Made by a program: the position numbers and the translations under genes
In this document: one piece after another, positions 1,177-41,775 of the stretch
Layout: every line of letters begins with the position of its first letter
Numbering within the stretch: position 1 is the first letter of the stretch
Origin: Candidatus Cloacimonadales bacterium
Lineage (GTDB): Bacteria; Cloacimonadota; Cloacimonadia; Cloacimonadales; JAFGVF01
DNA length: 64,000 bases
NCBI GenBank assembly: GCA_963663475.2
Contig: CAXXJV010000001.1
Span: 2,496,001 to 2,560,000 of the forward strand
Direction of reading: 5' to 3'
The notes under the pieces: generated by a model
Database searches by the model: none
Told to the model about the DNA's origin: nothing
Seen by the model: the letters and a program-made list of their open reading frames with translations, nothing else

Positions 1177-1178
1177 TT

Positions 1179-2006: not shown

Positions 2007-2051
2007 TCCCTTTTATATCTTATGGACAAATAATATAAAGCAAAAATAATT

Positions 2052-2084
2052 AGTCAATATATTTTTGTAACTTTTTAGTTACAA
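2052..2084 (-). promoter_or_regulatory. Putative -35 (TTGACT) with adjacent perfect palindrome TTGTAACT-N4-AGTTACAA
   Basis: AGTCAA at 2052-2057 on +; 8-4-8 inverted repeat at 2065-2084, upstream of the TrmB gene. Confidence 0.5.
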
Positions 2085-2152
2085 CAACAATAAATCCACT
2101 TTCTAAGCCTGTTAAGCTTGTCTTTTTTTTTAATCTTGCTCTGGGAAACAAA

Positions 2153-7321: not shown

Positions 7322-7630
7322 AGTCACTCCTCTATAATTATAATTTGTGCTTTTTCCCTAAGATTATTATCTTATAAACTCTATCTTAAGTTTATATATA
7401 GTTCAATTTTCCATTTATCAGTAAATCTAGTCAATATTATTTTTGTTAATTTTGAGTTTACAAATCTAAAATTTAATAAATATCTACTAAACTATGATTA
7501 TTTGTTTTTATTAATAACAATATTTGTATTTTTAAAAACACACTCTGCATTTATTTATTATCCCGAATAGTGCTATTCTCAAAGATCTATTGCATTATTT
7601 GGGATAATACATTATTTATCATTTTATTAA

Positions 7631-13500: not shown

Positions 13501-13673
13501 TCGTTAATTAAATCTGTTTGGAGATAAATTGTTCTCGACCAACCGTAATCGTAATATCCATAAGCTGGGATATAGTTGGTAGTTTCACTTCCAGTTCCTA
13601 CTTCTACATAAATAGCATTTGCTGCTAAAGCGAGAAGCATTAAAATAGCCACGAAAAATAATTTCTTTCGCAT
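7872..13673 (-). CDS. Large modular secreted/surface protein, paralog 2 (one extra Ig + adhesin-like module)
   Basis: Same architecture as paralog 1 plus ~263 extra aa; ATG 13673 with AAGGAG RBS (track start GTG 13679). Confidence 0.85.
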   Translation of the reverse strand: MRKKLFFVAILMLLALAANAIYVEVGTGSETTNYIPAYGYYDYGWSRTIYLQTDLINEMEINTISYHVGNSPSNYNMLNQSFYIKHTTDSSILSTEYVDPTTDDSYELVFNGDLTYNGGGWFDITLDSSFEYNGTDNLEILVLNNDGSYTTGYPNFLATTATPQQAVYKYADGTFPTTAGTLSSVFPNTRFHFTAENEPGMATLTAPENGSMNLTPPVELAWTNGEDTDWVKVYFSSEFSEVADMDANALVADEYTQETYTLDNLEPLTNYYWKIVSGNNISEYLVYTPIWSFSTAAEEGSIVIGNGAETNQHLPMEPFYGYTISQSIYDQEWLNIDNQRIEQVSYYYNGNSAWTEDNVQLYLGHTDLDTFTDGDSWLPLDTFVLCYDGPLTVPAEEGWVTIPLSVPFNYNNEDNLVIGFESNTQGYSSSNDEFLCTATNGTKSIYYYSDSTNSDFITPQSGTAHPYIPNILLTVGDIPTTPQLMVTPEEYSWDDTIINSSANTVTFTMRNTGLGTLTVNSISIDQTTDFIMVDDNSYPLNLTDDTAQFTVTFHPLTVGDFTANLTINDAENGDTIIPLSGSGYDAMIYDFPHLEGFEGLEANTLPQDWNSILNSTSSYASVGVITSNPNTGDNSFRFYNSGDLEADLIAFTPPVSGLTTKRIRVYAKSSDENTQLKVGVCDSNSNIDNFELVETLTLTTEYQEFFVNLNVENDNNQFIVFKADAFLNTYDYVYIDDLSIEEMPTGPVALITPLEWTYPATILNTSSLVEITIRNIGLGTLTINSVVLDQTTDFILVDNNEYPLNITNAPVVIGVNFHPLTEGDFTANLTITDDQGSETIIPLAGNGYDAMISDFPHFEGFEGYDTGALPLDWSTVVNSTTDYANAAVNTSAFEGERSFRFYNSSDTEAQITAITPPINNLTARRIRFMAKSSTAGAGIIIGTASNNSGDINFTARDTVYLTTEYQQFQHGFSTAPEDDQFIALEYLGLGTTYLSVYIDNFFIESIPTGPAIVVTQDTLNFGDVYLNRTGVAQLNIQNWGIAPLEIDFSQDGDELIFIPNELTIAPNETQIVEVNLTPIAEGAYSGSFNILSNDTAIPSIEIATSAFILPALPDNIAIIGNGELTGQSIPFEPWYRHTWSQSIYYSGEIGIADQRIEKISWHYNGNSAWGPDDMKIYMGLTSEVDFADGDSWISFESLMEVYNGSITVPQEDGWVEFELDIPFIYDNSQNLVVGVFHTVPQYHASGDEFYCTASDLTRSLVYYSDSTVPDPAAPPTANYQRNSYANIQLEFGAIPDAPDLTVYPTNSLFEMTPVDGNSVEKTITMRSIGLQDVTIANAPTLGGDDADQFTITTDNNTYPLVLPFNDIATIGVAFTPNSEGTKSATIQIVDDATRVTHEVVISGYAYADDNNDVPEDATTLTLPVDGDTYAIMPIGDIDWYKIPAMGISDTLLCSVEDAGGSDVNPSMWLYGPANDASEIDPAVYLDNGSNIEFVLPQSGNYFLRVAKSNVNPQGATPPHTRKNENGENERLTREDTGLYNLYVDANYNYDFNSPLNLEASNQSGYVALTWVEPPYERYLTGYHIYRDGEVITEEMIPIGTNLYHDANVVVGTEYHYHVVGMYEDPEGFSLPSNTAIIIYYNIGEPLWGDDFDDHEDFTLNLPGWIQYDIDGGNTYTISNVDYDNAGSAMSYMVFNPSATTPPIEDMIPQSGDKFLTSFASTEGQNDDWIITPRFTVGTTSVVSFYAKSYTDEFGLEKFRVKMSLGGSEVSDFQYSLHQGIDYLEAPTEWTLYNFNVSELTGTTVRFAIECISNDAFIFMVDNFRIDSTPDGVDNEHVEDIPQINSLAQNYPNPFNPETSIAFTTKEAGNVSIDIYNVKGQKVKTLLNDYRNAGNHSVVWNGRDNNNKAVASGLYFYKMRNGKFSSTKKMILMK

Positions 13674-13921
13674 AGTCACTCCTTTTTCTTTTTCCTTAAT
13701 TTTGAGTTGTGCTTTTTATTTCATTTTAAGAATTCGAATTTATTAGTGCTTAGTTAATTTCTACGATAGAATTTTCACATTAACTCTAGTAGTTTAGAAG
13801 AAAATATAGGCTAAAGTATGAAAGAGATCATTGAACTTCTAAACTACTATAATGTCTATATACGAAATATCGATTTAATTAAAAATTTGGCAAGAACTTT
13901 TTTAACTTTTTTTCCATAATG

Positions 13922-13975: not shown

Positions 13976-16900
13976 TTATTTCATTAAGATCATTTTCTTA
14001 GTTGAGCTAAATTTGCCATTTCTCATTTTGTAGAAATAAAGGCCAGAAGCTACAGCTTTATTATTATCATCTCTACCATTCCAAACAACACTATGGTTAC
14101 CAGCATTTCTATAGTCATTAAGGAGAGTTTTTACCTTCTGTCCTTTAACATTATAGATATCAATTGAGACATTACCAGCTTCTTTAGTAGTAAAGGCAAT
14201 TGAAGTTTCTGGATTAAATGGGTTTGGATAGTTTTGAGCTAATGAATTTATTTGTGGAATATCTTCTACATGTTCATTATCAACACCGTCAGGAGTAGAG
14301 TCTATTCTGAAGTTATCAACCATAAAGATAAAGGCATCATTACTTATACATTCAATAGCAAATCTTACAGTTGTACCAGTAAGTTCACTAACATTGAAGT
14401 TGTAAAGAGTCCATTCAGTTGGTGCTTCTAAATAATCAATACCTTGGTGAAGTGAGTATTGGAAATCACTAGCTTCACTACCACCAAGAGACATCTTAAC
14501 TCTGAATTTTTCTAACCCAAACTCATCAGTATAAGACTTTGCATAGAAGGAAACAACTGATGTTGTTCCTACTGTGAATCTAGGTGTGATTATCCAGTCA
14601 TCATTCTGTCCTTCTGTAGAAGCAAATGATGTTAAGAATTTATCTCCACTTTGAGGAATCATATCTTCAATAGGTGGAGTAGTTGCTGAAGGATTAAAGA
14701 CCATATAAGACATTGCTGAACCAGCATTATCATAATCAACATTACTAATAGTATAAGTATTTCCACCATCTATATCATGCTGAATCCAACCAGGTAAGTT
14801 AAGGGTAAAGTCTTCATGATCATCAAAATCATCTCCCCATAATGGTTCACCAATATTATAGTAGATAATAATAGCAGTATTTGATGGTAGGGAGAAACCT
14901 TCAGGATCTTCATACATACCAACAACATGATAGTGGTATTCTGTACCTACAACCACATTAGCATCATGGTAGAGATTAGTTCCAATTGGGATCATTTCTT
15001 CAGTAATAACTTCACCATCTCTATAAATATGATAACCTGTTAGGTATCTTTCATAAGGAGGTTCAACCCAGGTTAATGCAACATAACCAGATTGATTAGA
15101 AGCTTCTAAGTTTAGAGGTGAATTGAAATCATAGTTATAATTAGCATCAACATAGAGATTATACAATCCTGTATCTTCTCTAGTTAATCTTTCATTTTCT
15201 CCATTCTCATTCTTTCTTGTGTGTGGAGGTGTTGCACCTTGAGGGTAAACATTAGATTTGGCTACTCTAAGGTAGTAGTTACCACTTTGAGGTAGAACAA
15301 ATTCAATATTTGAGCCATTATCAAGATAAACAGCTGGGTCAATTTCACTAGCATCGTTAGCTGGACCATAAAGCCACATAGAAGGATTTACATCTGAGCC
15401 ACCAGCATCTTCTACTGAGCAAAGTAGAGTATCACTAATACCCATTGCAGGGATTAGATACCAATCAATATCACCAATAGGCATAATAGCATAAGTATCA
15501 CCATCAACAGGAAGAGTTAATGTAACAGCATCTTCCGGAACATCATTATTATCATCAGCATAAGCGTAACCAGAAATAACAACTTCATGAGTAACTCTAG
15601 TTGCATCATCAACTATTTGGATGGTAGCAGACTTCGTTCCTTCTGAGTTAGGAGTGAAAGCTACACCAATAGTAGCAATATTATTGAAAGGTAATACTAA
15701 AGGATAAGTATTATTATCTGTTGTTATTGTAAATTGATCTGCATCATCTCCACCTAAAGTTGGAGCATTAGCAATTGTTACATCTTGGAGACCAATAGAT
15801 CTCATAGTAATAGTCTTTTCAACTGAATTACCATCTACAGGAGTCATCTCAAATAGACTATTAGTAGGATAAACTGTTAAATCTGGAGCATCAGGAATAT
15901 CACCAAATTCAAGTTTTATATTAGCAAAGGCATCTCTAATATAATTTGCACTTGGTGGTGCGACAGGATCAGGATTTGTGGAATCGCTATAATAAATAAT
16001 ACCTCGAGTGGAGTTAGAAGGGGTACAATAGAAGTCATTATCACTTGAATGATAACCAGGGGTATCTTCTTCAACAGCAACTACAAGGTTTTGGGTATTA
16101 TCATAGACGAATGGAATATCTAATTCAAATTCAATCCAACCATCTTCTGCTGGGGCATTTAGAGTACCAGTATAAACTTGCATAAACTCACCAATATCAA
16201 TCCAGTCTTCATTATTAGCAAATTCATTCATATCTGTATGAGCCATGTATATTTTGAAATCATCTGGACCAAAAGCCCCAGTTCCATTATAATGCCAGGA
16301 AATTTTTTCAATACGAGAATCAGTAATTCCTATCTCATTAGCATAATAGATTACTTGCGAATAGGTATAGCCATAATATGGTTCAATTGGCATATTCAAA
16401 TTCGTAGCAGTACCTGTACCAATAACAGCGATATTATCAGGTAATGCCGGTAATATAAAAGCATCTGTATATATAGTTATTGATTCATTATTAGTATCAT
16501 TAGAAGTAACAGTAAATGAACCAGAATAATCTCCTTCAGCAATTGGGTTTAAACTAACATCTATGATTTCACTAGTTTCAGGTTCGATTGTAAGAGTTGT
16601 TGGATTGAAAGTAAGTTCAGTACCTGTAGAAGAAAGTTGGATTTCTAAATCACTTACACCCCAGTTTTCTACAGTGAGGTTACTTACGCCTGTCCTGTTC
16701 AAATAAACATCTCCGAAGTGAAGAGTGTCTTGGATAACTACTATAGCAGGACCAGTAGGAATATATTCAATAAAGAAATTATCTATATATTGGGTAACAT
16801 AAGTACCACCTGTTCCTAAATATTTAAGAACAATAAAACTAGCATTTTCATCAACACCAGCAAAATTTTGTACATACTGTTGCCAATCTGAACTAAAGGT

Positions 16901-18988
16901 AATAGTATCAATTGCAGTGAAATTTAACTCACCAACATTGTTATGAGCTACACCAACAACAATCTGTCCACCATCAGTAGATGATTTCCCCATAAAACGA
17001 ATACGTTTTGTAGTAAGGTCGTCTATAGGTGGAGTAATAGCATAGAGGTCAGGGTTTGTAGCATCAGCATTGTATAATCTTAACGTAGATGGACTTTCAT
17101 AACCACCGTAAGTATTTACTCCAACAGCAGAATATGTTGCAGCGTTTTCTATTACTGAAGCCCAATCTTGAGGAAGTTGTCCAATTTCGACATCTTCAAA
17201 ACCTTCAAAATGAGGGAAATCATAAATCATAGCATCATAGCCAGAACCAGTAAGTGGTATCACTGTATCACCGTTTTCTGCATCATTAATAGTAATGTTA
17301 GCAGTAAAATCTCCCACACTTTGTGGATTAAAAGCAACAGAAAAATGTCCAACATTATCTGTAATTTCTAAAGGGTAAGTATTATCATCTGTAAAGATGA
17401 AATCACTTGTTTGGTCAATAGTTACGCTATTAATTGTTAAAGTTCCTAAACCAGTATTTCTCATTGAGAAAGTTGTAGCATTTGTGACAGTATTTATTAT
17501 TGTATCATCCCAGTTATATTCTTCAGGGGTTATCATCAACTGAGGAGTAGTTGGTATATCACCCATTGTAAGAAGAATGTTTGCTATAAATGCTTGAGTA
17601 GTTCCAGTTGGAGGGGAAATAAAACCATAATTAGTTACATCATTATAGTGGTAAATACTTTTATTTCCATTCGTTGAAGTAGCATGAAACTCGTCGCTTG
17701 ATGAAGTATAACCTTGTGTATTAGCTTCAAAAGCAATAACTAAATTGTCATTATTGTTATAATTAAAAGGTATGGTTAAAGCTAGTGTAACCCATCCCTC
17801 TTCAGCTGGAACTGATAAAGGGCCATCATAACACAAGACAAAATCATTAATATCAAGCCAAGAATCACCATCCGCAAAGGCGTCTATTTGAGTATGACCT
17901 AAATATAATTGCACATTATCTTCTGTCCAAGCGCTATTACCATTATAATAGAAAGATACTTGTTCTATTCTTTGGTCTTCAATATTTAACCATTCTTGAT
18001 CATAGATCATTTGTGTAAGTGAATAACCATAAAAAGGTTCCATAGGCAGGTGTGTATTTGCCTCTGTTCCGTTACCAATAACAATTGATCCCTCTTCTGC
18101 ACTTGTAGCAAATGACCAGATTGGAGAAGGTGTAGTGAATTCAATCAAGTTATTTCCTGCTTCAATTCTCCAATAATAAGTTGTTAAGGGATTTAGATCA
18201 TCAGTAGTTATTGTTTGCTGGGTATATTCTTCTGAGATTAGGGCTGCTTCTGTCATATCACTAACATCAGTATATACATCACTTAAATAAACGTTAACCC
18301 AATCAGTATTAACTCCATTTGTCCAAGTTAGTTCAACAGGAGATGATTGATTGAAAGAACCATTAGCAGGACTTGCTAATGTTGGGAGTCCTGGTTCATT
18401 TTCTGAAAGGTAATGGAATCTAGTATTTGGGAATACAGGAGATAACTGACCGTCTGCAGCAGGAAATGTTCCATCAGAATAACTAAAACAAGCCATTTCA
18501 GGTGAAGCTGAAGTAGCTGTAAAAATTGGTTGTGAAGATGCATAAGATCCATCATTATTAATAACTAAAACTTCTAAGTTATCACTACCATTGTAAGTAA
18601 AAGTTTGATCAAAAATTATATCAAACCAGCCTGTTCCATTATAAGTTAAAGTACCACTGAAAACTTCAGTATATGTTTCATCAGTAGTAGGATCAATATA
18701 TGTTGGATTTACGAAGTTTTCCTCGGTAGTATTTTTTAAATAGAAAGTCTGGTTAAGCATCTCATAGTTGCTAGGTGTGTTGTTTACATGATAAGAAAGT
18801 TTGTTAATTTCCATCTCATTCTCTAAATCTGCGGCAGGATAAATAGTCCGTGACCAACCGTAATCATACCAGCCATATGCTGGGATATAACTAGAGGTCT
18901 CATTTCCATCACCAACCTGTACAAAGACTGCATTTAAGGACATTATCAAGGTTAATAATGTTAAAACAACAATCATTTTCTTTTGCAT
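13976..18988 (-). CDS. Large modular secreted/surface protein, paralog 3
   Basis: Same length and architecture as paralog 1; last ~1.9 kb (13976-15899) near-identical to paralogs 1 and 2; ATG 18988 with AAGGAG RBS. Confidence 0.85.
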   Translation of the reverse strand: MQKKMIVVLTLLTLIMSLNAVFVQVGDGNETSSYIPAYGWYDYGWSRTIYPAADLENEMEINKLSYHVNNTPSNYEMLNQTFYLKNTTEENFVNPTYIDPTTDETYTEVFSGTLTYNGTGWFDIIFDQTFTYNGSDNLEVLVINNDGSYASSQPIFTATSASPEMACFSYSDGTFPAADGQLSPVFPNTRFHYLSENEPGLPTLASPANGSFNQSSPVELTWTNGVNTDWVNVYLSDVYTDVSDMTEAALISEEYTQQTITTDDLNPLTTYYWRIEAGNNLIEFTTPSPIWSFATSAEEGSIVIGNGTEANTHLPMEPFYGYSLTQMIYDQEWLNIEDQRIEQVSFYYNGNSAWTEDNVQLYLGHTQIDAFADGDSWLDINDFVLCYDGPLSVPAEEGWVTLALTIPFNYNNNDNLVIAFEANTQGYTSSSDEFHATSTNGNKSIYHYNDVTNYGFISPPTGTTQAFIANILLTMGDIPTTPQLMITPEEYNWDDTIINTVTNATTFSMRNTGLGTLTINSVTIDQTSDFIFTDDNTYPLEITDNVGHFSVAFNPQSVGDFTANITINDAENGDTVIPLTGSGYDAMIYDFPHFEGFEDVEIGQLPQDWASVIENAATYSAVGVNTYGGYESPSTLRLYNADATNPDLYAITPPIDDLTTKRIRFMGKSSTDGGQIVVGVAHNNVGELNFTAIDTITFSSDWQQYVQNFAGVDENASFIVLKYLGTGGTYVTQYIDNFFIEYIPTGPAIVVIQDTLHFGDVYLNRTGVSNLTVENWGVSDLEIQLSSTGTELTFNPTTLTIEPETSEIIDVSLNPIAEGDYSGSFTVTSNDTNNESITIYTDAFILPALPDNIAVIGTGTATNLNMPIEPYYGYTYSQVIYYANEIGITDSRIEKISWHYNGTGAFGPDDFKIYMAHTDMNEFANNEDWIDIGEFMQVYTGTLNAPAEDGWIEFELDIPFVYDNTQNLVVAVEEDTPGYHSSDNDFYCTPSNSTRGIIYYSDSTNPDPVAPPSANYIRDAFANIKLEFGDIPDAPDLTVYPTNSLFEMTPVDGNSVEKTITMRSIGLQDVTIANAPTLGGDDADQFTITTDNNTYPLVLPFNNIATIGVAFTPNSEGTKSATIQIVDDATRVTHEVVISGYAYADDNNDVPEDAVTLTLPVDGDTYAIMPIGDIDWYLIPAMGISDTLLCSVEDAGGSDVNPSMWLYGPANDASEIDPAVYLDNGSNIEFVLPQSGNYYLRVAKSNVYPQGATPPHTRKNENGENERLTREDTGLYNLYVDANYNYDFNSPLNLEASNQSGYVALTWVEPPYERYLTGYHIYRDGEVITEEMIPIGTNLYHDANVVVGTEYHYHVVGMYEDPEGFSLPSNTAIIIYYNIGEPLWGDDFDDHEDFTLNLPGWIQHDIDGGNTYTISNVDYDNAGSAMSYMVFNPSATTPPIEDMIPQSGDKFLTSFASTEGQNDDWIITPRFTVGTTSVVSFYAKSYTDEFGLEKFRVKMSLGGSEASDFQYSLHQGIDYLEAPTEWTLYNFNVSELTGTTVRFAIECISNDAFIFMVDNFRIDSTPDGVDNEHVEDIPQINSLAQNYPNPFNPETSIAFTTKEAGNVSIDIYNVKGQKVKTLLNDYRNAGNHSVVWNGRDDNNKAVASGLYFYKMRNGKFSSTKKMILMK

Positions 18989-19607
18989 AGTCACTCCTTA
19001 ATCGTGTTTAATAAATTCCTTAATTTTGGATTGTGCTCAATATACTTGATAACAAGTATCTATTTGCTATGGTGGTAGCAAATTCTTTTAATACAAATCA
19101 AAGAAAGCATATTATTTTTTTCTTGGCAAGTATTATTTTTAATTTTTCTTAATATTTTAACTTTTTGCGATAATTAAATCTATCTTAACAGTGTTAATAT
19201 CTTTTCCACTATTAATTTTTTATATTGTTAACTTAATATTTCTTAGTAGTGAAATTCTTGATTATTAGTTTCAGTTTATTAATTCCTACTTTTACCAATT
19301 AAGCCACCAATAGATGTTTTTTGCTTGGATAAATTTTTATTAATTGTATCAAATTTTCAACAGTTCATTTACTCCCCCCGCCTAACGGCAAGCCTCTCAT
19401 ACCCCTCTAATGAGCAGAAAGGGGAATTAGATTCTCACACCAAGGCACGAAGAAGATAAGGAAGAATATTTTTAACAAAAATTATTTGGGATTTAACGAC
19501 TTACTTTTGCAAAAGAAAAAGGAGTTAATCACAAAGGAATACTGCATTAGGGATATAAAGTTGGGGTAAGAATATGTTAGTTGAAGTATAAAGAATAAGT
19601 TTTTGTG

Positions 19608-19684
19608 TGGTAGCGAGAGGAGGATTTGAACCTCCGGCCTTCGGGTTATGAGCCCGACGAGCTACCAAACTGCTCCATCTCGCG
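19608..19684 (-). tRNA. tRNA-fMet (CAT), initiator
   Basis: CGCGAGATGGAGCAGTTTGGTAGCTCGTCGGGCT-CAT-AACCCGA...TTCAAATCC...ACCA; C1 mismatch and GGG/CCC anticodon stem. Confidence 0.95.
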
Positions 19685-19695
19685 ACAATAAAAAA

Positions 19696-19772
19696 TGGGG
19701 TGGCTGATGGGGCTCGAACCCACGACGCCAGGAACCACAATCCTGTGCTCTACCAACTGAACTACAGCCACC
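19696..19772 (-). tRNA. tRNA-His (GTG)
   Basis: GGTGGCTGTAGTTCAGTTGGTAGAGCACAGGATT-GTG-GTTCCTG...GGTTCGAG...CCCCA. Confidence 0.95.
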
Positions 19773-19812
19773 ATATTTAAGGTAAAATGTGTGTTTTATA
19801 ATTTTAAAAGAA

Positions 19813-19889
<77 letters not shown>

Positions 19890-19898
19890 ACATTAAAA

Positions 19899-19975
19899 TG
19901 GTAGCGGCACAGGGACTCGAACCCCGGACACTCGGATTATGATTCCGATGCTCTAACCAACTGAGCTATGCCGCC
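19899..19975 (-). tRNA. tRNA with CAT anticodon (probably elongator Met; Ile2 not excluded)
   Basis: GGCGGCATAGCTCAGTTGGTTAGAGCATCGGAAT-CAT-AATCCGA...GGTTCGAG...ACCA. Confidence 0.9.
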
Positions 19976-19982
19976 ATTTTTA

Positions 19983-20059
19983 TGGTAGCGAGAGGAGGAT
20001 TTGAACCTCCGGCCTTCGGGTTATGAGCCCGACGAGCTACCAAACTGCTCCATCTCGCG
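19983..20059 (-). tRNA. tRNA-fMet (CAT), second identical copy
   Basis: Identical to 19608-19684. Confidence 0.95.
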
Positions 20060-20172
20060 TCAAGTTTTATCAATTTATAAAATAGTGTTTTTCTGTCAAG
20101 TAAAATTTTCATTTATTTGATTTTCACTTATCAATCAGGAAAGATTGATTAACACTAACACACTATATAGAA

Positions 20173-20249
20173 TGGCACGCCCAAGAGGAGTCGAACCCCT
20201 AACCTTCTGATCCGTAGTCAGACACTCTATCCAATTGAGCTATGGGCGC
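20173..20249 (-). tRNA. tRNA-Arg (ACG)
   Basis: GCGCCCATAGCTCAATTGGATAGAGTGTCTGACT-ACG-GATCAGA...GGTTCGACTCC...GCCA. Confidence 0.95.
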
Positions 20250-20706
20250 ACATCGTTTTTGCATAAAAAAACTAGGGGGTTTTATGTCAAGCATATTTTT
20301 TAACTTTTTTTAGTGATACTTAGCTATCATATTGATTAATTGAAGGTTAATAAGTCTTTTTATTTTTTATATTCTCCTTATAGGCTAGCATCTTATTCTT
20401 CTTTAATTGTTAGTCTCCCTGAAAAAATGGGATTTTTACAGGAAAAAGTATAAAAGTATAAAGTGACACCCAAGTTTTCCATCTGCAAAAACGATCCATA
20501 TATCTCATAAAATCCCACACATTAAACTCTTACACCTATTTTCAATCGTTTTTTCAAAATTTCCAATTTAACTGCTTTCACAGGAAACTTTATCGTTTGA
20601 TTTATACTTTTAAAGTAGTTTTGTGGTTGTAAAGAACACCATTAATAACCTTAAACATCTAATAAATAAAGAATTAGTCTATTTTGTAGTTTTAAGGCAA
20701 TTGAAA

Positions 20707-20839
20707 AAAATCGTTTTTACGCTTTTTTCTCACTGCAAAAACGATTCGGTTTCTCACATTTGATAAAAAAGCGTAAAAACGATTTTGAAGAAGTGACAGA
20801 GTTTTTTCATTATTGATAAAAAACCGTAAAAACGATTTT
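20707..20839. repeat. Array of AAAAACGAT-core sites: 22-bp perfect inverted repeat plus 27-bp direct repeat
   Basis: 20707-20728 AAAATCGTTTTTACGCTTTTTT is the exact reverse complement of 20765-20786; 20760-20786 and 20813-20839 differ at one base. Confidence 0.85.
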
Positions 20840-20864: not shown

Positions 20865-22733
20865 TTATTTTTGAAAAGTAACGTCCAAACTCGCTCCGTA
20901 TAAATTCTTTTCGATTATTCTGTATCGACATTTAGATTCTATAGTTTTGCTTAGAACAGTTTTCAGTTCTTTCTTAGCTGTAGAAACTCTTTTATTCTTG
21001 CTCTTGCAGCTTTTAGTTTCTAGCAATCTAATTTTTAACGAATCATTTTTTAGTTCTATGATTATTGAATCAATATCTGTTATGCAAGATTCACTTGGTT
21101 TCTTTCTGAAGTCATAAATATTTATTCTCGAGTTATATATCAGAGCAAATCCTTCAAAGTTTCTTAGTGTATTCTTTAAATGATTAACTTCATGTTTCCT
21201 GCCTTTGTCTGAGATACCTTCTTGGTGCCTGTCCAAGTCTTCCTTAATCAATTCAAAATTATCATGAGGTGTTTTGATATAAAATTTTTGGTGATCTATT
21301 TCTTGTACTTCACTCAATCTATAATCATCTTTAAATATGAATTTCAGTATTGCCCAAAATAGATTTTCATAAGATGGTATTAGATCTTTATCTAAAACTT
21401 TGAATAAAATATACTTATGGGCATTTGTATCTGTTTTAAAGATATTATTTAACTTTTCACTTGGTATGCCATTTTGTTTTGCTCTTTGTTTGAGCTCATT
21501 AAACATAACATTATGAATCATTTTTGGGTTAGATACTTGCAATTCACTTTCTTTTAATAACATATTACATATATTAAAATTGATAGTAACAAAACTTGAA
21601 GAAGTAAACTTTTCTGTAAAAAAAATATCTGCTGATCTAGCATTTGTAATCGGATTGTGATCTAAATACGTTTCTATGCCAACGCAGTGCTTTCTTAATA
21701 TTGATATTCTTCTAACTTCATCATAAAAATTAATTCTTGATCTGTGGACTGGTAATTTGAATCTAACATAAGGAATATAAGATTTTATTTCTTTAGTAAC
21801 TAATCCTGTTTGAATAGCATCTCTGATAATTTCTTTATATTGTGATGCTTGTTTCTTCTTAACATCAATAATTTTCAATGACTCAATTTCATAAGATTTT
21901 TGTAGTGCACAAACTTCTGGATCATGATAAATTGAATCATATAGTTCATTTACAAAAGGATTTAAACTACTATTAATATTCAATTTAACAACTCTATCGG
22001 AATTATTTAAAGAGTTAATGAATGAAAAAATATCAGCATTAAATGGTATATGCGAATAGTGTGCATCTATTGAGATAATTGATAATTTTCGTATAATTCC
22101 ATAAACATCCGTTAATTGTTGAAGTTTATGAATATTTAACTTGCAAGAGTTAGAACTTAGCAACATTTTAAACAAAAACCTAATACTTTGCTTCATTTCT
22201 GTACTCAAAGAAGAGTTTCTATCTAGTCTATGCAAAGAAATTAAAAAATGAAACTTTGAAACATCGAAATTATTAATTATGACATTGGCAATTTCTTCAA
22301 GCTCATTATCTAAATTACATAAGAAAATTGATTTAAATCCTTTTAACTTTTTTGCAAACTTTAACAATGATCGTTCATCTGCATATGTATTCTTAGTGTG
22401 CCCAAAATTTGACAGCATAAACCAACTTTTAAGAATACTGTTACCTGTATATTCTTGACCGTTAACTTTGATACTTCCTAGGGAAAAACTCGAGCCTTTA
22501 TGAATATTATCAAATAAATCAACCATAGCACACTGTAACATCAGATATTCATACCTGCTATGGGATGCTCCATCAAATGTTTTTTCAATCAACCCCAAAT
22601 GCTTAATTCTTTTCTGTCTATCAAACTCTTTTTCAGTTTCATACAATGAATAAACACTTCGAGCAATATCATAAAATTTTATAGAGACTAGTCCAAAACT
22701 AGGGATAGCTACCTTATGAATAATTGAGGACAA
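20865..22733 (-). CDS. Degenerate HD/dNTPase-like domain fused to a C-terminal PD-(D/E)XK-like nuclease domain
   Basis: 'EFDRQKRIKHLG...GASHSRYEY', 'LSNFGH', 'LYDSIYHDP' align with SAMHD1/YdhJ-type motifs; C-terminal 'TDIDSIII...LLETK...AKKEL'. TTG start with AAGGAG RBS. Confidence 0.65.
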   Translation of the reverse strand: MSSIIHKVAIPSFGLVSIKFYDIARSVYSLYETEKEFDRQKRIKHLGLIEKTFDGASHSRYEYLMLQCAMVDLFDNIHKGSSFSLGSIKVNGQEYTGNSILKSWFMLSNFGHTKNTYADERSLLKFAKKLKGFKSIFLCNLDNELEEIANVIINNFDVSKFHFLISLHRLDRNSSLSTEMKQSIRFLFKMLLSSNSCKLNIHKLQQLTDVYGIIRKLSIISIDAHYSHIPFNADIFSFINSLNNSDRVVKLNINSSLNPFVNELYDSIYHDPEVCALQKSYEIESLKIIDVKKKQASQYKEIIRDAIQTGLVTKEIKSYIPYVRFKLPVHRSRINFYDEVRRISILRKHCVGIETYLDHNPITNARSADIFFTEKFTSSSFVTINFNICNMLLKESELQVSNPKMIHNVMFNELKQRAKQNGIPSEKLNNIFKTDTNAHKYILFKVLDKDLIPSYENLFWAILKFIFKDDYRLSEVQEIDHQKFYIKTPHDNFELIKEDLDRHQEGISDKGRKHEVNHLKNTLRNFEGFALIYNSRINIYDFRKKPSESCITDIDSIIIELKNDSLKIRLLETKSCKSKNKRVSTAKKELKTVLSKTIESKCRYRIIEKNLYGASLDVTFQK

Positions 22734-22745
22734 ACATTTCTCCTT

Positions 22746-23472
22746 TTAAATAACCCTAAACAGAAAGACCATCTCACCTAAGATCCTGAAGGTCTCAAGT
22801 TCAAAGTCTTCTATTATTATTACATCAAAATCTGGATTAAGTGGTTTAAGTATAACCCTCTTCTTCTCTTTATCAAATTGTAGTTTTTTTAAAGTAGCAC
22901 CTTCAGGTGTATGACAAGCACATACTTTACCATTCAAACTTGGTATATCTATGTTCTCTCTTATAACAACAACATCTCCATGAGCAATTATTGGGAACAT
23001 ACTGTTTCCATTAACCTTGAGAGCTATATACTTGTTCTCTTGATCTGACAAATAAGCTTTTGGTATCTCTATATACTTTGATGGAGCATCATCATAACCA
23101 TTCATTGGAGTACCTGCAGCAATCTCTCCATATATAGGTAGAGTTATAACCCTTGAATCGAAAGGGTTGAGTTTATGTTTATATACTGAGTTATTTCCTG
23201 TCATCTCTTCTATATTCTTTTTATGACCATCTCCATAGAGATTTCCATCAGAATCTAAAACAAACATTCCACCTTTACCAGTTAATAACCAATTTAAGTT
23301 TAAACCATAGCGTTCGTTGATACGAGCCATGGCTGTTGCTGGAGGTTTACTTGTTTTTTCTGTTCAACCAATCTGATAGATTACCTGATGTGACCTCAAT
23401 AGTATTCGTAAACTCGGAACGCTTTATATCAAGAGCATTTACGAACATTAACAGCCTATCTTTTATATCCAT
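22746..23472 (-). pseudogene. Phage cI/LexA-like XRE-HTH + S24 peptidase repressor split by a 1-nt frameshift
   Basis: ATG 23472 (GGAG RBS) gives MDIKDRLLMFVNALDIKRSEFTNTIEVTSGNLSDWLNRKNK*. Removing one A from the A6 run (T 23354-23359 on +) joins it to the 194-aa ORF with 'NLNWLLTGKG', 'IAAG' cleavage site, 'GNSMFP' Ser and 'TLKK' Lys. Confidence 0.8.
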
Positions 23473-23512
23473 TTAATCTCCTATCTTTTATATCCATTTA
23501 ATCTCCTATCTT
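23455..23512. repeat. 25-bp tandem duplication covering the repressor RBS and start codon
   Basis: CCTATCTTTTATATCCATTTAATCT at 23455-23479 and 23480-23504, plus a partial third copy. Confidence 0.9.
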
Positions 23513-23526
23513 ATATATCATTCCAT

Positions 23527-23638
23527 TTCGCATTGTTGCACACTGATGCGTTGGACTGAAACTTTTCCTTGACTACTTTCGCATATTTTGCTTTATAGAT
23601 TTAGTAATCATTATTTGCAACATTGCGAACAATGTCAA
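23527..23638. promoter_or_regulatory. Immunity-switch region: three operator-like TTCGCA-N-TTGC sites and opposing promoters
   Basis: TTCGCATTGTTGCA 23527-23540; TTCGCATATTTTGC 23578-23591; inverted TGCAACATTGCGAA 23616-23629; TTGACT (+) 23569; TTGACA-17-AATAAT (-) 23638-23610. Confidence 0.6.
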
Positions 23639-23658: not shown

Positions 23659-23901
23659 ATGAGATCACCATATCATCCTGCTGTAATAAGATCAGCTATG
23701 ACGCTTAAAAGACTCACAACAAAGGCATTAGCCGAACGCTTATTCATCTCCAGAAGATCATTAGATTATTTTATTAATGAAGGAATACATATAAGAAAAG
23801 CAGAAGATGTCTTAGAAATTCTTCAACCTGAGCTTGATGAGATAAGTGAAATTTATCGCAAACACACTAACATAGAAGTCGAGAGTTGCGAAAAGAGGTA
23901 A
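23659..23901 (+). CDS. Small Cro/Ner-like HTH protein
   Basis: AGGAGG RBS; 'IRSAMTLKRLTTKALAERLFISRRSLDYFI' HTH; divergent from the repressor. Confidence 0.7.
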   Translation: MRSPYHPAVIRSAMTLKRLTTKALAERLFISRRSLDYFINEGIHIRKAEDVLEILQPELDEISEIYRKHTNIEVESCEKR

Positions 23902-24387: not shown

Positions 24388-26004
24388 ATGAGAAAATTTG
24401 TACTATTAATTCTATTGTTGCTGACCGCAATTCTACAACTATACGCAGACAACGAACTAGAACCTTGGATTACCCTTAGTGGAGAGTGGGCTCCATCCTG
24501 GTTTGGGAAACACATGGCAGTATTAGACTTTAATGCAGATGGTATAGATGACTTAATCGTTTATCATATTGGAGAATATGGTGTTTATCATGGAGCTTTA
24601 AATATCTACTTTGGTGGAAGTAATTTCGGTAATGAACCTGATATGGTAATAGAAGGAGATCATGTTGGTCATTTAAGAGAAGGTGTCTTCTACTGCGGAG
24701 ATGTTAATGGTGATGGCTATGATGATTTTATAAGTCATGCTTTTGTTCATAGTGATGGTGTTGGAGACCCGAATGATTACGCCTTTCGCTACTACTTTGG
24801 TGGACCCAATCCTGATATTGAAGTTGATCAAGAATTTTCATATAGTGATAATGATCAAGATTGGTATGGGATAAGAACCTGTTTAGGAGATGTTAATAAT
24901 GATGGTTATGATGATATTGGGCTTAAAAGATTTGAGGGTAATGGTTATCCTTTAAAGATATTACTTGGTAATACGCTTGAACTTGTGGAAATTATTCCTG
25001 CTGAAGAGTCAACTCTTTTTTTCCCTAATATTGAACCTATGGGAGATATCAACAATGATGGTATAGCTGATTTCTCAGTTGGTTATGGATATGAAGCACA
25101 TGGTACGGAACATCAACATACAAGAATATTCTATGGAGGAGAAGATTTTACAACTAGTTTTATTGACTACAAACACTATGTTAATTCCGAATACATGTTT
25201 AAAGGGGCAAAGACTATTGGTGATTTTAATGGGGATGGATTAAATGATTTTCTTTTTCCAGTACCAAATAATGCGTCAAACGACTATTATGCCTTAGCCA
25301 TACGAGCTGACGAGATACTAGAGTCAGATGAACTTCATGTAGAACAATTTTATTATGACCAACCTTTACTAGACGCTTCTAGACCTATGTCCTACACTAT
25401 AGGTTACGGAGACTTTAATGGTGATGGTTTTAGTGATTTTGTTGGTTCTAATATGGAATATGCTATAGATGATGGAGCTGCCGGAATCTGGTTTGGCAGG
25501 GCAACCCCAAACGGAGATTGTGATATTAGATTAAATAGTCCAACTGTAGTTCATCAATTTGGCTACAAAGTTAAAGTTGGAGATTTTAATGGTGATGGAT
25601 TGGATGATATTGCTATCTCTTCTCCTCACCGAGCAGGTTCTTTAGAAGATGGATTTAATGGAGAAGTTTATATTTATAAAGGATCAGTTGATTTAGCTGA
25701 TACGGCTGTAGCTAATAGTGACCAAGAAGTTGAAGAAAATCATGGTATAAGATTAAATATCTACCCGAATCCTTCTAAATCTAGTATGGATATTAAGTAC
25801 ACTATTAAAGGTTCCTTAAGTAGAGATATTTCGGGTACACAGCTAATTATCTACAACATTAAAGGTCAAAAAATTTATTCAACAAGTATTAATAGTAAAG
25901 ATAACACAATTAGCATACCTCAAGTCCCATCAGGATGTTACATTGCTGAAATTAAAGAAAACAATAAAGTCTTGGCTTCTAGTAAGTTTAATTTAATAAA
26001 ATAA
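24388..26004 (+). CDS. Secreted FG-GAP/VCBS (integrin-like beta-propeller) repeat protein with T9SS-type CTD
   Basis: Signal peptide; seven 'GD(F/V/I)NxDGxxD'-type repeats; 'IYPNPS...IYNIKGQ...SGCY' C-terminus; AAGGAG RBS; TTGACA-17-TTAAAT at 24261-24289. Confidence 0.85.
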   Translation: MRKFVLLILLLLTAILQLYADNELEPWITLSGEWAPSWFGKHMAVLDFNADGIDDLIVYHIGEYGVYHGALNIYFGGSNFGNEPDMVIEGDHVGHLREGVFYCGDVNGDGYDDFISHAFVHSDGVGDPNDYAFRYYFGGPNPDIEVDQEFSYSDNDQDWYGIRTCLGDVNNDGYDDIGLKRFEGNGYPLKILLGNTLELVEIIPAEESTLFFPNIEPMGDINNDGIADFSVGYGYEAHGTEHQHTRIFYGGEDFTTSFIDYKHYVNSEYMFKGAKTIGDFNGDGLNDFLFPVPNNASNDYYALAIRADEILESDELHVEQFYYDQPLLDASRPMSYTIGYGDFNGDGFSDFVGSNMEYAIDDGAAGIWFGRATPNGDCDIRLNSPTVVHQFGYKVKVGDFNGDGLDDIAISSPHRAGSLEDGFNGEVYIYKGSVDLADTAVANSDQEVEENHGIRLNIYPNPSKSSMDIKYTIKGSLSRDISGTQLIIYNIKGQKIYSTSINSKDNTISIPQVPSGCYIAEIKENNKVLASSKFNLIK

Positions 26005-41064: not shown

Positions 41065-41775
41065 CTATTCAAACTTCCTATAGAGAAATGTCATGACACC
41101 TATTAGAGCACAATCAGCGTGATCTTGAGGTTCAATGACAATAGTTTCAAAACCTTCGTTCAATGGTATTAATAATAACTGATGGGTATTCTTGTCAAGC
41201 TTCATTTTCTTTAATGTTACTTCCCCATCTAATCTTACAGCACAAATCTTACCATTACTTCTTTCCCAGTCATTTGATTTCTCAATAAGAATAACATCCC
41301 CATTCTTTATCACAGGCTCCATGGAAGAGCCATTAACTTTGAGACAGAGGTAGTTTTCAGCTTTGCCATGAATCTGGTCTCTAGAGAATTTAACATCTCC
41401 AAAGTCATCATGTTTTGATTCTATAGGCATACCAGCAGAAATTTCACCTGAGATGGGAATTGTAATCATTGAATCATCAAAGAATTTCATTTTAGCTTCA
41501 ATAACTTTATGAATATGATTATCAAGGACCTTTTCAAGTTGATCTATTTCTTTAACCTTAGAACCTTCAATAACCATATTACCTTTGCCAGTAATTAACC
41601 AGTGAAGATTTATTCCGTATAGGTTACAGAGCTTATTCATAGTATCAATAGAGGGTTTGATTTTACCTGATTCCATTTGAGATAGAGCAGAAGCTTTAAG
41701 ATTTAGTCTGTCTGCCAGCTCAATTTGCTTGATATTACGAGTTTTTCTGATTTCTTTAATTCTTGAACCTATCAT
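41065..41775 (-). CDS. XRE-HTH + S24 peptidase (LexA/cI-like) transcriptional regulator, intact
   Basis: HTH 'IKQIELADRLNLKASALSQMESG', 'INLHWLITGKG', 'ISAG', 'GSSMEP', 'TLKK'. Confidence 0.9.
   Translation of the reverse strand: MIGSRIKEIRKTRNIKQIELADRLNLKASALSQMESGKIKPSIDTMNKLCNLYGINLHWLITGKGNMVIEGSKVKEIDQLEKVLDNHIHKVIEAKMKFFDDSMITIPISGEISAGMPIESKHDDFGDVKFSRDQIHGKAENYLCLKVNGSSMEPVIKNGDVILIEKSNDWERSNGKICAVRLDGEVTLKKMKLDKNTHQLLLIPLNEGFETIVIEPQDHADCALIGVMTFLYRKFE

Follow-up and report, generated by a model that had tools for sequence, protein, structure and literature searches.

A SAMHD1-like protein family with a remodelled metal site and a conserved C-terminal E-D-ExK domain: a possible deoxynucleotide-gated nuclease

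A 622-codon gene behind a split repressor gene

The window analyzed here is a 64,000-nt stretch of a contig from a Candidatus Cloacimonadales bacterium, and all features described below lie on its minus strand. At positions 20865..22733 (stop included), an unbroken, TTG-initiated open reading frame of 622 codons plus stop encodes a SAMHD1-like pseudo-dNTPase module joined to a domain with an E-D-ExK pattern. When the same stretch (27.9% G+C) was shuffled (n = 1000), the longest open run averaged 73.6 ± 15.6 codons and reached 151 at most. The frame is intact, as the original prediction had claimed. Its own ribosome-binding site, AAGGAG (22740..22745), was read directly 6 nt before the TTG start. 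Direct reading likewise upheld the predicted 12-nt distance from the repressor stop: the TAA of the upstream ORF ends at 22746, and the 622-aa gene starts at 22733.

The upstream ORF (22746..23330; 194 aa) encodes a cI/LexA-like S24 peptidase (Pfam Peptidase_S24, 4.8e-21; phrog_4, 5e-28) whose HTH is reduced to its final third (Phage_CI_repr positions 43–65 of 65), with relatives in 8 of 50,697 phage records at 25–35% identity. The N-terminal portion of this HTH is encoded in another frame, in a 41-aa ORF (23347..23472; phrog_2328, E 0.003), and a frame offset of one base, located at an A6 run (23354–23359), separates the two pieces of the cI-like gene. The gene had originally been placed downstream of a prophage repressor, among broken phage genes. 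The adjoining, split cI-like gene agrees with that description; the prophage does not, as no phage gene besides the repressor was recognized among the 35 larger window ORFs scanned, and a prophage is thus not shown. Upstream of the repressor, TTGACA-17-AATAAT (23610..23638) is a weak promoter candidate, such sites being no more frequent than in shuffled sequence, and no terminator-like site was found on the minus strand between it and the 622-aa gene.

The rexAB genes of phage lambda are prophage morons co-transcribed with the repressor. The window gene resembles them in that it follows the cI-like S24 ORF in the same orientation after 12 nt and that nothing terminator-like separates the two. 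It differs in that the repressor is frame-split, that the window holds no recognizable prophage, and that an S24/cI neighbor was found at none of the 13 other loci (0/11 in genomes, 0/2 on plasmids). With the family also absent from all 50,697 phage records searched, the rexAB-like framing of the original prediction does not generalize.

A cluster of six tRNA genes (19608..20249) borders an islet of roughly 4 kb that contains the gene. Between the cluster and 24.4 kb, we found no convincing att-like direct repeats flanking the islet. The G+C content around the 622-aa gene is 0.26–0.28 vs. 0.33–0.37 in the left flank; on the right side, at 26–30 kb, it is 0.27–0.32 and does not contrast, which counts against the mobile-island reading preferred below.

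A SAMHD1-type fold with a remodelled pocket

An AlphaFold (AF2) model of the 622-aa protein (pLDDT 86.7, pTM 0.83) was combined with Foldseek and profile matches to assign residues 1–470 (21324..22733) a dNTPase fold of the SAMHD1 type in which the metal site is degenerate. Of the best 500 rows from Foldseek against the PDB, at least 191 had E ≤ 1e-3, led by 9mr6_A (E 4.3e-7, prob 1.00). All rows listed are described as SAMHD1 except 9a40_E, and the SAMHD1 chains align over 437–504 columns with TM 0.36–0.59 (normalized on the target). A profile of the 129-member family matches 9mr6 (2.1e-6), 2hek (7.8e-6), 2o6i (2.3e-5), and 2q14 (8.4e-4), and an 80-member sub-profile reproduces the SAMHD1-type dNTPase matches. 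The single 622-aa sequence had no match in the PDB with phmmer, and Pfam HD went undetected in it and in 24 + 80 further members. Judged by predicted fold and by profile, the N-terminal module is a true SAMHD1-family homologue, sharing its fold and the order of its N-terminal motifs with human and fungal SAMHD1 and with the bacterial EF1143 (2o6i), 2q14, and 2hek. Structure prediction therefore bears out the HD-like fold originally proposed for this part of the protein. The proposed extent of about 280 aa was wrong, the Foldseek alignments indicating about 470 residues.

The dNTPase motif order read from the sequence was recovered in profile alignments, which set EFDRQKRIKHLG opposite (F/V)QRLR.IKQLG, HSRYEY opposite H.RFEH, and LSNFGH opposite LLHDIGH. 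Within EFDRQKRIKHLG (residues 36–47; 22593..22628), the residues aligned to Q149 and L150 of SAMHD1 are H45 and L46; in the alignment to 7ujn_A, profile positions 35–62 equal residues 139–166. HSRYEY (residues 58–63; 22545..22562) contains R60, the counterpart of R164, and Y63, which replaces the metal ligand H167. In LSNFGHTKNTYADER (residues 107–121; 22371..22415), S108 and N109 replace the HD ligands, H112 corresponds to H210, E120 is kept, and Y117 falls opposite the catalytic His of 'PFSH' in the 2q14 alignments. Farther along the protein are RKLSIISID (residues 215–223; 22065..22091) and Y269 (21927..21929), the latter present in 127/129 members and aligned with the Tyr that 2hek and 2q14 have in their 'VY.HK' motif.

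The part of PMC7311409 available to us gives the Fe ligands of SAMHD1 as H167, H206, D207, and D311, and describes contact residues that grip the deoxyribose and phosphates, with R164 and H210 holding the phosphates of the free dNTP. Column counts across the 129 full-length family members show how these positions have fared. No member has H at position 63 (Y in 127, gaps in the remaining two), and none has HD at 108–109, where the His is replaced by S, L, G, or T and the Asp by N (N109 in 114). Where 2q14 has the catalytic His of 'GHGPFSH', the family has F in 65, Y in 31, I in 24, L in 8, and H in 1, and the acidic partner E120 of the His-Asp/Glu dyad is retained in 116. Among the contact positions, the counterpart of R164 is R in 123 and K in 4, H112 is present in 118, position 45 is H in 97 and Q in 30 (together 127), and L46 is found in 127.

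By alignment, the family has lost the catalytic His together with three of the four canonical iron ligands. Because the replacements hold across 129 members and the contacts stay conserved, the pocket has been remodelled family-wide rather than having decayed in one copy. The H>Y and HD>SN substitutions singled out by the original prediction are thus a family trait, and no homologue retains H63 or HD108–109 (absent from 129/129), an outcome in favor of that prediction; the basic nucleotide-contact residues that it described as kept are R60 and H112, to which H/Q45 and L46 can be added. The place of the fourth ligand, D311 in SAMHD1, may be taken by either R215 (128/129), in line with the D>R replacement of the original prediction, or D223 (129/129), both on one helix (residues 201–226). 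Alignments to solved structures did not extend over these residues: a sub-profile of residues 185–300 gave chance-level rows only in the PDB, and hhalign of the 129-row profile with E. coli Dgt gave Prob 0.14 over 29 columns. Near-invariant residues of the family's own are Y63, N109, T116, R215, and D223. Only 17 of the 622 positions are conserved at ≥90%: 12 in the pocket motifs, one outside them (G14), and the four of the C-terminal E-D-E-K tetrad.

A metal might still be bound by the conserved Y/N/H/D residues, a point against the sensor reading preferred below; other metallophosphatases do have ligand sets made up of Tyr, Asn, His, and Asp. One alternative is a remodelled but active phosphohydrolase, with H58, Y63, N109, H112, E120, and D223 as a new catalytic or metal center, the HD-like module hydrolyzing a nucleotide or cleaving nucleic acid, and the C-terminal domain an accessory. 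The replaced positions are non-random (Y63 127/129, N109 114/129, D223 129/129) and so point to a site with a function, not to neutral decay. We nevertheless regard this alternative as very unlikely, given that three canonical ligands are missing from every member and that His occupies the catalytic position in a single one. A SAMHD1 mutant containing D207N (H206R/D207N) is also inactive with an empty metal site, according to the available part of PMC7311409, and the equally strict conservation of E-D-E-K argues for a catalytic tail.

A second alternative concerns what the pocket holds. The Foldseek list includes SAMHD1–oligonucleotide complexes (8d9j, 8d94, 6u6x, 6u6y, 6u6z, and 8tdw), and the fold therefore has a known nucleic-acid-binding mode. 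The SAMHD1-like module might then bind nucleic acid, not free nucleotides, and direct a C-terminal restriction-type nuclease to single-stranded, modified, or end structures, or to a flipped-out or terminal deoxynucleotide, in the manner of type IV reader domains. Retention of the deoxyribose-contacting positions would suit such a role. On the other hand, the conserved R60 and H112 are the very positions that hold free-dNTP phosphates in SAMHD1 (PMC7311409, available part), and Pfam searches revealed no DNA-binding domain; we consider nucleic-acid targeting unlikely, with further evidence on it from the gene neighborhoods below.

The C-terminal E-D-ExK domain

Compared with SAMHD1-type dNTPases, in which H167, H206, D207, and the catalytic His are intact, the family has these residues replaced, the counterparts of Q149, L150, R164, and H210 conserved, and a domain of roughly 150 aa appended. 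This alpha/beta domain (residues 471–622; 20868..21323), a putative PD-(D/E)xK nuclease, was modelled separately with AF2 (pLDDT 85.8). Its most conserved positions are E515 (21189..21191; 127/129), D555 of D553-I-D555 (21069..21077; 127/129, with residue 553 D in 60 and E in 60), and E572 and K574 of E572-T-K574 (21012..21020; 126/129 each); the tetrad is complete in 123/129 members. The D-x-D...E-T-K pattern noted earlier is thus confirmed.

According to DSSP, the order in the model is helix 510–522, strands, a hairpin (550–561/565–573), helix 579–597, and a strand. E515 sits on the helix preceding the hairpin, D555 and E572 lie on its opposite strands, equidistant from the turn, and K574 follows two residues on. 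An acid on a helix together with D and ExK on a hairpin is the arrangement of PD-(D/E)xK sites, whose core runs alpha-beta-beta-beta-alpha-beta with D and ExK on adjacent strands; the modelled elements may correspond to this core. Language-model features of residues 490–622 most resemble those of NERD (0.88), Mrr_cat (0.83), and Card1_endonuc (0.82), all below the tool's lead threshold of 0.9 and used here as leads only, and the ten best named look-alike clusters all belong to the NERD/Mrr/Card1 nuclease clan. With NERD/Mrr-type PD-(D/E)xK enzymes the domain has in common E...D...ExK on a helix-hairpin-helix-strand core, as well as these sub-threshold feature scores (0.83–0.88), but neither HMM nor Foldseek matches.

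A PD-(D/E)XK fold of the tail, as originally predicted, was not borne out by structural comparison: Foldseek of the domain model gave no match at E ≤ 1e-3 in either PDB (best 5.7e-2) or BFVD (best 8.3e-2). Pfam nuclease families were absent from 24 + 80 full-length members; for 11 isolated domains searched at E ≤ 10, the one related match was HSDR_N, in 1/11 (E 0.087). The profile of residues 470–622 had no relevant match in the PDB, and hhalign of the tail with an Mrr fragment at locus L002 gave no match. Influenza PA chains, which carry a PD-(D/E)xK endonuclease, appear in both Foldseek lists and were dismissed as nuclease evidence (prob 0.06–0.15).

These results leave room for a domain that is not a nuclease, namely a regulatory or oligomerization alpha/beta domain whose E, D, E, and K bind a ligand or partner, making the protein a pure sensor or scaffold. 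Such a reading fits the failure of structural and profile searches to link the domain to any nuclease family, and the best Foldseek rows, though non-significant, are anti-sigma-factor and kinase ATP-binding domains. It is at odds with a tetrad whose identity, spacing, and placement on helix and beta-hairpin fit a PD-(D/E)xK site, with look-alikes drawn entirely from one nuclease clan, and with the lack of a conserved partner gene on which a scaffold could act (see below). We judge it improbable.

The domain was also sought outside its usual setting. Among 79 candidate free-standing proteins of 30–341 aa, none matched residues 470–622 at E ≤ 1, and among 1168 candidate larger fusions (1090–3110 aa), a weak search found none with residues 1–300 at E ≤ 0.01. 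A 152-aa CDS on Priestia plasmid pBMG4 was considered as a free-standing nuclease domain and rejected as a 5′-truncated remnant, a 174-aa open frame starting within the region of the family's residue ~455.

Distribution, gene neighborhoods, and possible role

The family comprises at least 402 clusters at 50% identity and is unnamed, its members being labelled 'hypothetical protein' in every named source. The 622-aa protein has no match in Pfam, NCBIfam, PADLOC, or PHROGs, and Pfam revealed nothing consistent in 24 and 80 further members. PADLOC-DB v2.0 yielded no family at E ≤ 1, so within that resource the protein belongs to no named defence family, as had been predicted. Members are spread patchily over Bacillota, Bacteroidota, and Pseudomonadota: a pattern scan of 185,579 species genomes recovered at least 11 loci, a lower bound, and only 2 of 72,556 plasmid records carry the gene. 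An 11-row tree mostly follows phyla and so does not demonstrate cross-phylum transfer; like the rarity on plasmids and the absence from phage records, this weighs against the reading preferred below. In the literature searched, we found no account of an inactive SAMHD1-like domain joined to a nuclease, and 10.1101/2025.09.30.679545 makes no mention of SAMHD1, HD domain, dGTPase, NERD, or dNTPase.

The gene stands alone. All-against-all BLAST of neighboring ORFs identified no conserved partner gene, and the only neighbors common to several loci are recombinases, SDRs, and AraC-type regulators. Of 12 full or near-full loci, five (L001, L002, L008, L010, and L012) have a tyrosine recombinase in the vicinity; none was found within the ~8-kb flanks of L003–L007 and L009. 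Surroundings of a housekeeping kind include groEL at L006, tig/clpP at L007, and a class II aaRS at L011. PADLOC matched 2 of 58 chromosomal neighbors, both weakly, which counts against a role in defence.

The two plasmid loci look different. On Peribacillus plasmid pA the gene adjoins PDC-M01A/B (6e-185 and 8e-95), and the truncated copy on Priestia pBMG4 lies beside PbeA, PbeC, and a NucC-like nuclease; 6 of 9 plasmid neighbors have PADLOC matches, and both plasmid loci adjoin defence genes. The expected association with defence islands is thus mixed, apparent on the plasmids and weak on the chromosomes. The truncated copy's position next to Pbe phosphorothioation-type genes would also suit a nuclease targeted to nucleic acid, as would a stand-alone gene, the state of many type IV enzymes.

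The family might serve something other than defence: a toxin or addiction module, a maintenance or recombination nuclease of integrative elements, or a nuclease for host DNA repair under the control of the dNTP pool. The recombinases at five loci and the scarcity of known defence genes near chromosomal copies favor this, and the window gene's place behind an S24 (RecA-cleavable type) repressor hints at a DNA-damage tie. Against it, there is no conserved antitoxin or recombinase-subfamily partner, six loci have no recombinase in their flanks, both plasmid loci are defence neighborhoods, and the distribution, at least 11 loci in 185,579 species genomes, is patchier and sparser than a repair function would suggest. 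On balance a non-defence role seems rather improbable.

Several immune systems offer parallels. The CBASS and type III CRISPR effectors Cap4, NucC, and Card1/Can2 are ligand-gated PD-(D/E)xK nucleases activated by ligand-driven oligomerization. The same logic is proposed here, a nucleotide-binding sensor coupled to a restriction-type nuclease, and Card1_endonuc is among the sub-threshold look-alikes. Here, however, the proposed sensor has a dead dNTPase fold in place of SAVED or CARF; the family has no linked gene for a cyclase or another source of a signal, and there is no PADLOC or Pfam match to those nuclease families. Type IV enzymes of the GmrSD/BrxU type combine nucleotide-binding DUF262 with a nuclease in a single stand-alone polypeptide. 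The family likewise joins an NTP-binding-type module to a putative nuclease in one stand-alone chain; the folds are unrelated (DUF262/ParB-like and HNH in GmrSD/BrxU), and the family has no PADLOC match.

In the available parts of PMC12265719 and PMC13519002, the dNTPase family is described as serving antiviral immunity under nucleotide control at allosteric sites. One such dNTPase-fold defence protein, CloA of Clover, senses a phage-induced rise in dTTP through allosteric sites (PMC12265719, available part). The dNTPase fusions in the accessible portion of PMC13519002 are to SAM, NLR, TIR, CARD, death, and SIR2 domains, and include neither a nuclease nor an inactive form.

Our preferred explanation, to which we give a little less than an even chance, is a deoxynucleotide-gated nuclease of mobile islands, probably acting as a defence effector. 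The fold, the homology, the loss of catalytic residues, the pattern of conservation, the stand-alone state of the gene, and its recombinase or plasmid surroundings are shown by the analysis; ligand binding, nuclease activity, the coupling of the two, and the role in defence are inferred. The remodelled pocket would bind a deoxynucleotide-like ligand without hydrolyzing it; candidates are a dNTP that rises on infection or a phage-specific nucleotide. Binding, perhaps through SAMHD1-style oligomerization, would turn on the C-terminal nuclease, which would cut phage and/or host DNA and so lead to restriction or abortive infection. The gene would move alone on small mobile islands.

A broader proposal, more doubtful, is that the family represents an undescribed class of single-protein immune sensors, in which a SAMHD1-type dNTPase has become a non-hydrolyzing deoxynucleotide receptor that licenses an attached restriction-type nuclease. 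In this receptor the iron ligands would have given way to other residues and an Arg or Asp pair would have been added, with the contacts to deoxyribose and phosphates kept; it would sense the dNTP pool or a phage-made nucleotide.

From bacteria to humans, proteins with the dNTPase fold are established as antiviral effectors and, to our knowledge, always act as nucleotide-depleting enzymes. In this family the metal site is dismantled, yet the substrate-gripping positions and the E-D-ExK module are under the protein's strongest constraint. Even without a role in defence, describing it fills an annotation gap, as none of Pfam, NCBIfam, PADLOC, and PHROGs includes a model of it. Should the pocket prove to be a receptor, the family would be a clean natural case of enzyme-to-sensor conversion in immunity, and one ancient fold would serve immunity in opposite ways, by destroying dNTPs (SAMHD1, bacterial dGTPases, Clover) or by listening to them. 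It would then provide a direct handle on how cells read disturbance of the nucleotide pool during infection, as well as a new scaffold for ligand-gated nucleases.

The 622-aa gene and its surroundings

The predicted open frame at 20865..22733 exists, on the minus strand; it starts with TTG and runs for 622 codons before its stop. Its length is far above chance, since the longest open run in 1000 shuffles (27.9% G+C DNA) averaged 73.6 ± 15.6 codons, with a maximum of 151 vs. 622 observed. The TTG agrees with homologue N-termini in the family alignment; the ATG found at 22737-22735 belongs to another frame. Two further details of the original prediction are seen in the sequence: an AAGGAG 6 nt upstream of the start, and a cI-like ORF (22746..23330, minus strand) that stops 12 nt upstream.

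The cI-like ORF has an S24 peptidase domain (4.8e-21) and only the last third of its HTH, the first part of which is encoded in a different frame by a 41-aa ORF (23347..23472, minus strand). The two frames part at six consecutive A residues (23354-23359), where either a real frameshift or a homopolymer error could be the cause. Three tandem 25-nt repeats (23448-23522; the later copies 88% and 76% identical to copy one) each include a GGAG that resembles an RBS, an ATG and the opening codons of the HTH ORF, so that the repressor gene has its 5′ end in triplicate. A good -35/-10 match lies upstream of the cI-like ORF (23638-23610), and nothing resembling a terminator separates it from the 622-aa gene, but matches of this kind are no more frequent than in shuffles. 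An 80-aa plus-strand ORF (23659-23901) without a Pfam HTH or PHROG match points away from the cI-like gene, placed as a cro gene would be.

The 622-aa gene is part of an islet of ~4 kb, bordered by a six-tRNA gene cluster (19608-20249) and a gene for a T9SS-sorted FG-GAP protein (from 24388). Islet G+C (0.26-0.28) is below that of the left flank, with similar values at 26-30 kb, and no gene for phage structure, replication or integration is among the 35 larger ORFs of the window. Thus, the islet could at best be what is left of an immunity region. Of the proposed prophage-repressor setting, the adjacent cI-like ORF is seen, and no prophage is recognisable among these ORFs.

Several other features of the window were recorded. 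Two tRNA-Met(CAT) genes in the cluster (19608-19684 and 19983-20059) are 97% identical over 87 nt, with a third, different tRNA-Met between them. Just downstream of the 622-aa gene's stop, a 26-nt element (TGATAAAAAAGCGTAAAAACGATTTT; 20707-20839) is found twice in direct and once in inverted orientation (92-96% complementary); its AAAACGAT core, also present at 20252-20559, recurs several times in the interval that separates the tRNA-Arg gene from the stop codon, and the element matches no Rfam family. A second, intact HTH_XRE plus Peptidase_S24 repressor (41068-41775, minus strand, 236 aa) may be a host LexA-like regulator. Three tandem giant paralogous genes on the minus strand (2309-7327, 7872-13679 and 13976-18994) encode 1672, 1935 and 1672 aa; in the first two, the two scanned, Ig-like repeats come with a C-terminal sorting domain of the T9SS. 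Other Por_Secre_tail proteins are encoded at 24388-26004 and 51500-53236.

A SAMHD1-type module with an altered pocket

A word-indexed search (8000 candidates scored) gave 23 relatives besides the window protein (617-639 aa, 30-36% identity, 92-100% coverage), and exhaustive HMMER searching of 1.84 billion cluster representatives gave 402 members at E ≤ 1e-3, of which 225 reach ≤ 1e-10 and 51 reach ≤ 1e-30. All source names seen were "hypothetical protein." The window protein had no meaningful match in Pfam, PADLOC v2.0, NCBIfam, PHROGs or a phmmer search of the PDB, nor did 24 plus 80 other members in Pfam; as regards the novelty originally proposed, no named defence family of PADLOC v2.0 matches. 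Column counts below use 129 of 167 proteins, those of 540-700 aa, leaving out 38 of 102-529 aa that are mostly fragments.

The AlphaFold2 model of the 622-aa protein (24-row alignment; pLDDT 86.7, pTM 0.83) gave 191 Foldseek matches in the PDB at E ≤ 1e-3 among the best 500, led by 9mr6_A (E 4.3e-7, prob 1.00); those listed are SAMHD1 by description, all except 9a40_E. SAMHD1 alignments span 437-504 columns with high rmsd (8-14 Å) and query-normalised TM of 0.29-0.40, so the domain arrangement differs. Independently, a 129-row profile matched 9mr6 (2.1e-6), 2hek (7.8e-6), 2o6i (the bacterial dNTPase EF1143; 2.3e-5) and 2q14 (8.4e-4), with human and mouse SAMHD1 at about 0.005-0.025, and an 80-row sub-profile returned the same SAMHD1-type matches. 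Despite its differing arrangement, the modelled N-terminal module (about residues 1-470) is clearly related to SAMHD1, as had been predicted.

According to the available text of PMC7311409, SAMHD1 binds iron through H167, H206, D207 and D311, contacts the alpha-phosphate through R164, H210 and H215, binds the 3′-OH through Q149 and residue 319, and excludes ribose through L150 and Y374; an H206R/D207N mutant is inactive, its metal site empty. Profile positions 35-62 align with residues 139-166 of 7ujn_A (626-residue chain), and therefore H45 corresponds to Q149, L46 to L150, R60 to R164 and Y63 to H167. The 2q14 alignment sets family LL(S)N(I)GH opposite LLHDIGH, and GH..(T)(F/Y) opposite GHGPFSH.

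At the first His ligand position (63), 127 of 129 members have Tyr and the other two a gap. No member has the HD pair at 108-109, where position 108 is S in 67, L in 23, G in 13, T in 10 and others in the rest, and position 109 is N (114), S (8), A (3), G (2) or H (2). The catalytic-His position holds F (65), Y (31), I (24), L (8) or H (1). Residues retained are R60 (123/129, with K in 4 more), H112 (118), H or Q at position 45 (127), L46 (127) and Y269 (127), the last aligned with the "VY.HK" Tyr of 2hek and 2q14. R215 (128/129) and D223 (129/129) share a helix in the model (201-226); no profile or hhalign alignment to solved structures covers this stretch, and R215 is a plausible candidate for the D>R replacement of the fourth ligand. 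Setting that ligand aside, the alignments indicate a family that has lost its ligand and catalytic positions and retained those that grip the substrate. The H>Y and HD>SN losses and the kept nucleotide contacts noted originally are accordingly family-wide, with no homologue retaining H/HD among the 129 full-length members. A remodelled pocket in a still active hydrolase is an improbable reading; a module that targets nucleic acid is somewhat less so, though still unlikely.

The conserved C-terminal tetrad

Conservation reaches 90% or more at only 17 of 622 positions. The N-terminal module has 13 of these, 12 within pocket motifs, and the C-terminal module (about residues 471-622) has the other four, namely E515 (127/129), D555 (127), E572 (126) and K574 (126), which occur all together in 123 members. 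In both the full-length and isolated-domain models (pLDDT 85.8 for the latter), E515 belongs to a helix, the two strands of one hairpin carry D555 and E572 at equal distance from the turn, and K574 lies two residues past E572, followed by a long helix and strand. The predicted placement resembles the PD-(D/E)xK layout.

The isolated domain had no Foldseek match at E ≤ 1e-3 in the PDB or BFVD, and profile searches and Pfam gave no nuclease match; its language-model look-alikes were NERD (0.88), Mrr_cat (0.83) and Card1_endonuc (0.82), all under the tool's 0.9 threshold. The nuclease signature is thus strong and the fold assignment weak: of the PD-(D/E)XK tail first proposed, the D...ExK residues stood and the fold found no match. 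Given the strong signature, the similar layout and the negative searches, we consider the domain only probably a PD-(D/E)xK nuclease; that the tail is no nuclease at all seems unlikely.

Genomic distribution and proposed role

Of 28 stretches that came out of a pattern scan of 185,579 species genomes, 11 are relatives, and these belong to three phyla: Pseudomonadota (Glaciecola, Arenicella, Methylophilaceae), Bacteroidota (Nonlabens, Pontibacter, Cytophagales, Flavobacterium, Crocinitomicaceae) and Bacillota (Neobacillus, Peribacillus, Paenibacillus). Their 11-row tree mostly tracks phyla, except that, within its phylum, Flavobacterium groups with Pontibacter and not Nonlabens; the window copy is a long branch without placement. 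Neighbours were scanned over the nearest 110 of 170 called ORFs, with loci L001 and L011 cut by contig ends. None of the 11 loci has an S24 or cI-type neighbour, and the predicted coupling to a repressor does not extend to them. Tyrosine recombinases are near the gene at four loci (L001, L002, L008 and L010), with extra paralogues at L002 and L010; housekeeping genes flank three copies (L006, L007, L011). Apart from recombinases, no neighbour family recurs in an all-against-all comparison, and PADLOC matches among chromosomal neighbours number 2/58, both marginal.

At the Neobacillus locus (L002), three adjacent tyrosine-recombinase-like ORFs (92-3169) lie upstream of the family gene, with a fourth integrase at 3885-5042, and a truncated Mrr-type nuclease ORF directly adjoins the family gene.

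By tblastn, the family occurs on 2 of 72,556 plasmids and in none of 50,697 phages. On Peribacillus pA the gene adjoins a PDC-M01A/B pair (6e-185, 8e-95), with a mad1-like HTH protein and a recombinase also beside it. Priestia megaterium pBMG4 (L013 5989-6513) has a 5′-truncated remnant, whose open frame of 174 aa carries the annotation of a 152-aa hypothetical protein, directly after a DUF6602/NucC-like nuclease gene and near PbeA and PbeC. Mobile or defence contexts are a minority of family loci. A non-defence function, in an island or in repair, is a reading that we consider unlikely.

The family is a stand-alone gene that combines a conserved non-canonical pocket in a dNTPase fold with a conserved acidic/Lys tetrad in an appended domain. 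We propose that the pocket would bind a deoxynucleotide-like ligand without turnover, that binding would license the putative C-terminal nuclease, possibly by SAMHD1-style oligomerisation, and that the outcome would be restriction or abortive infection. Clover, a dNTPase-fold defence protein that reads phage-induced dTTP, is a precedent for such nucleotide sensing, as far as the available text of PMC12265719 describes it. The fusions named in the accessible part of a dGTPase survey (PMC13519002) are SAM, NLR, TIR, CARD, death and SIR2, whereas here the appended domain is E-D-ExK; in the portions of the literature searched, no inactive SAMHD1-like domain with a fused nuclease is described. With its putative function, the family would be grouped with the dNTPase-fold immunity proteins and the sensor-nuclease effectors.
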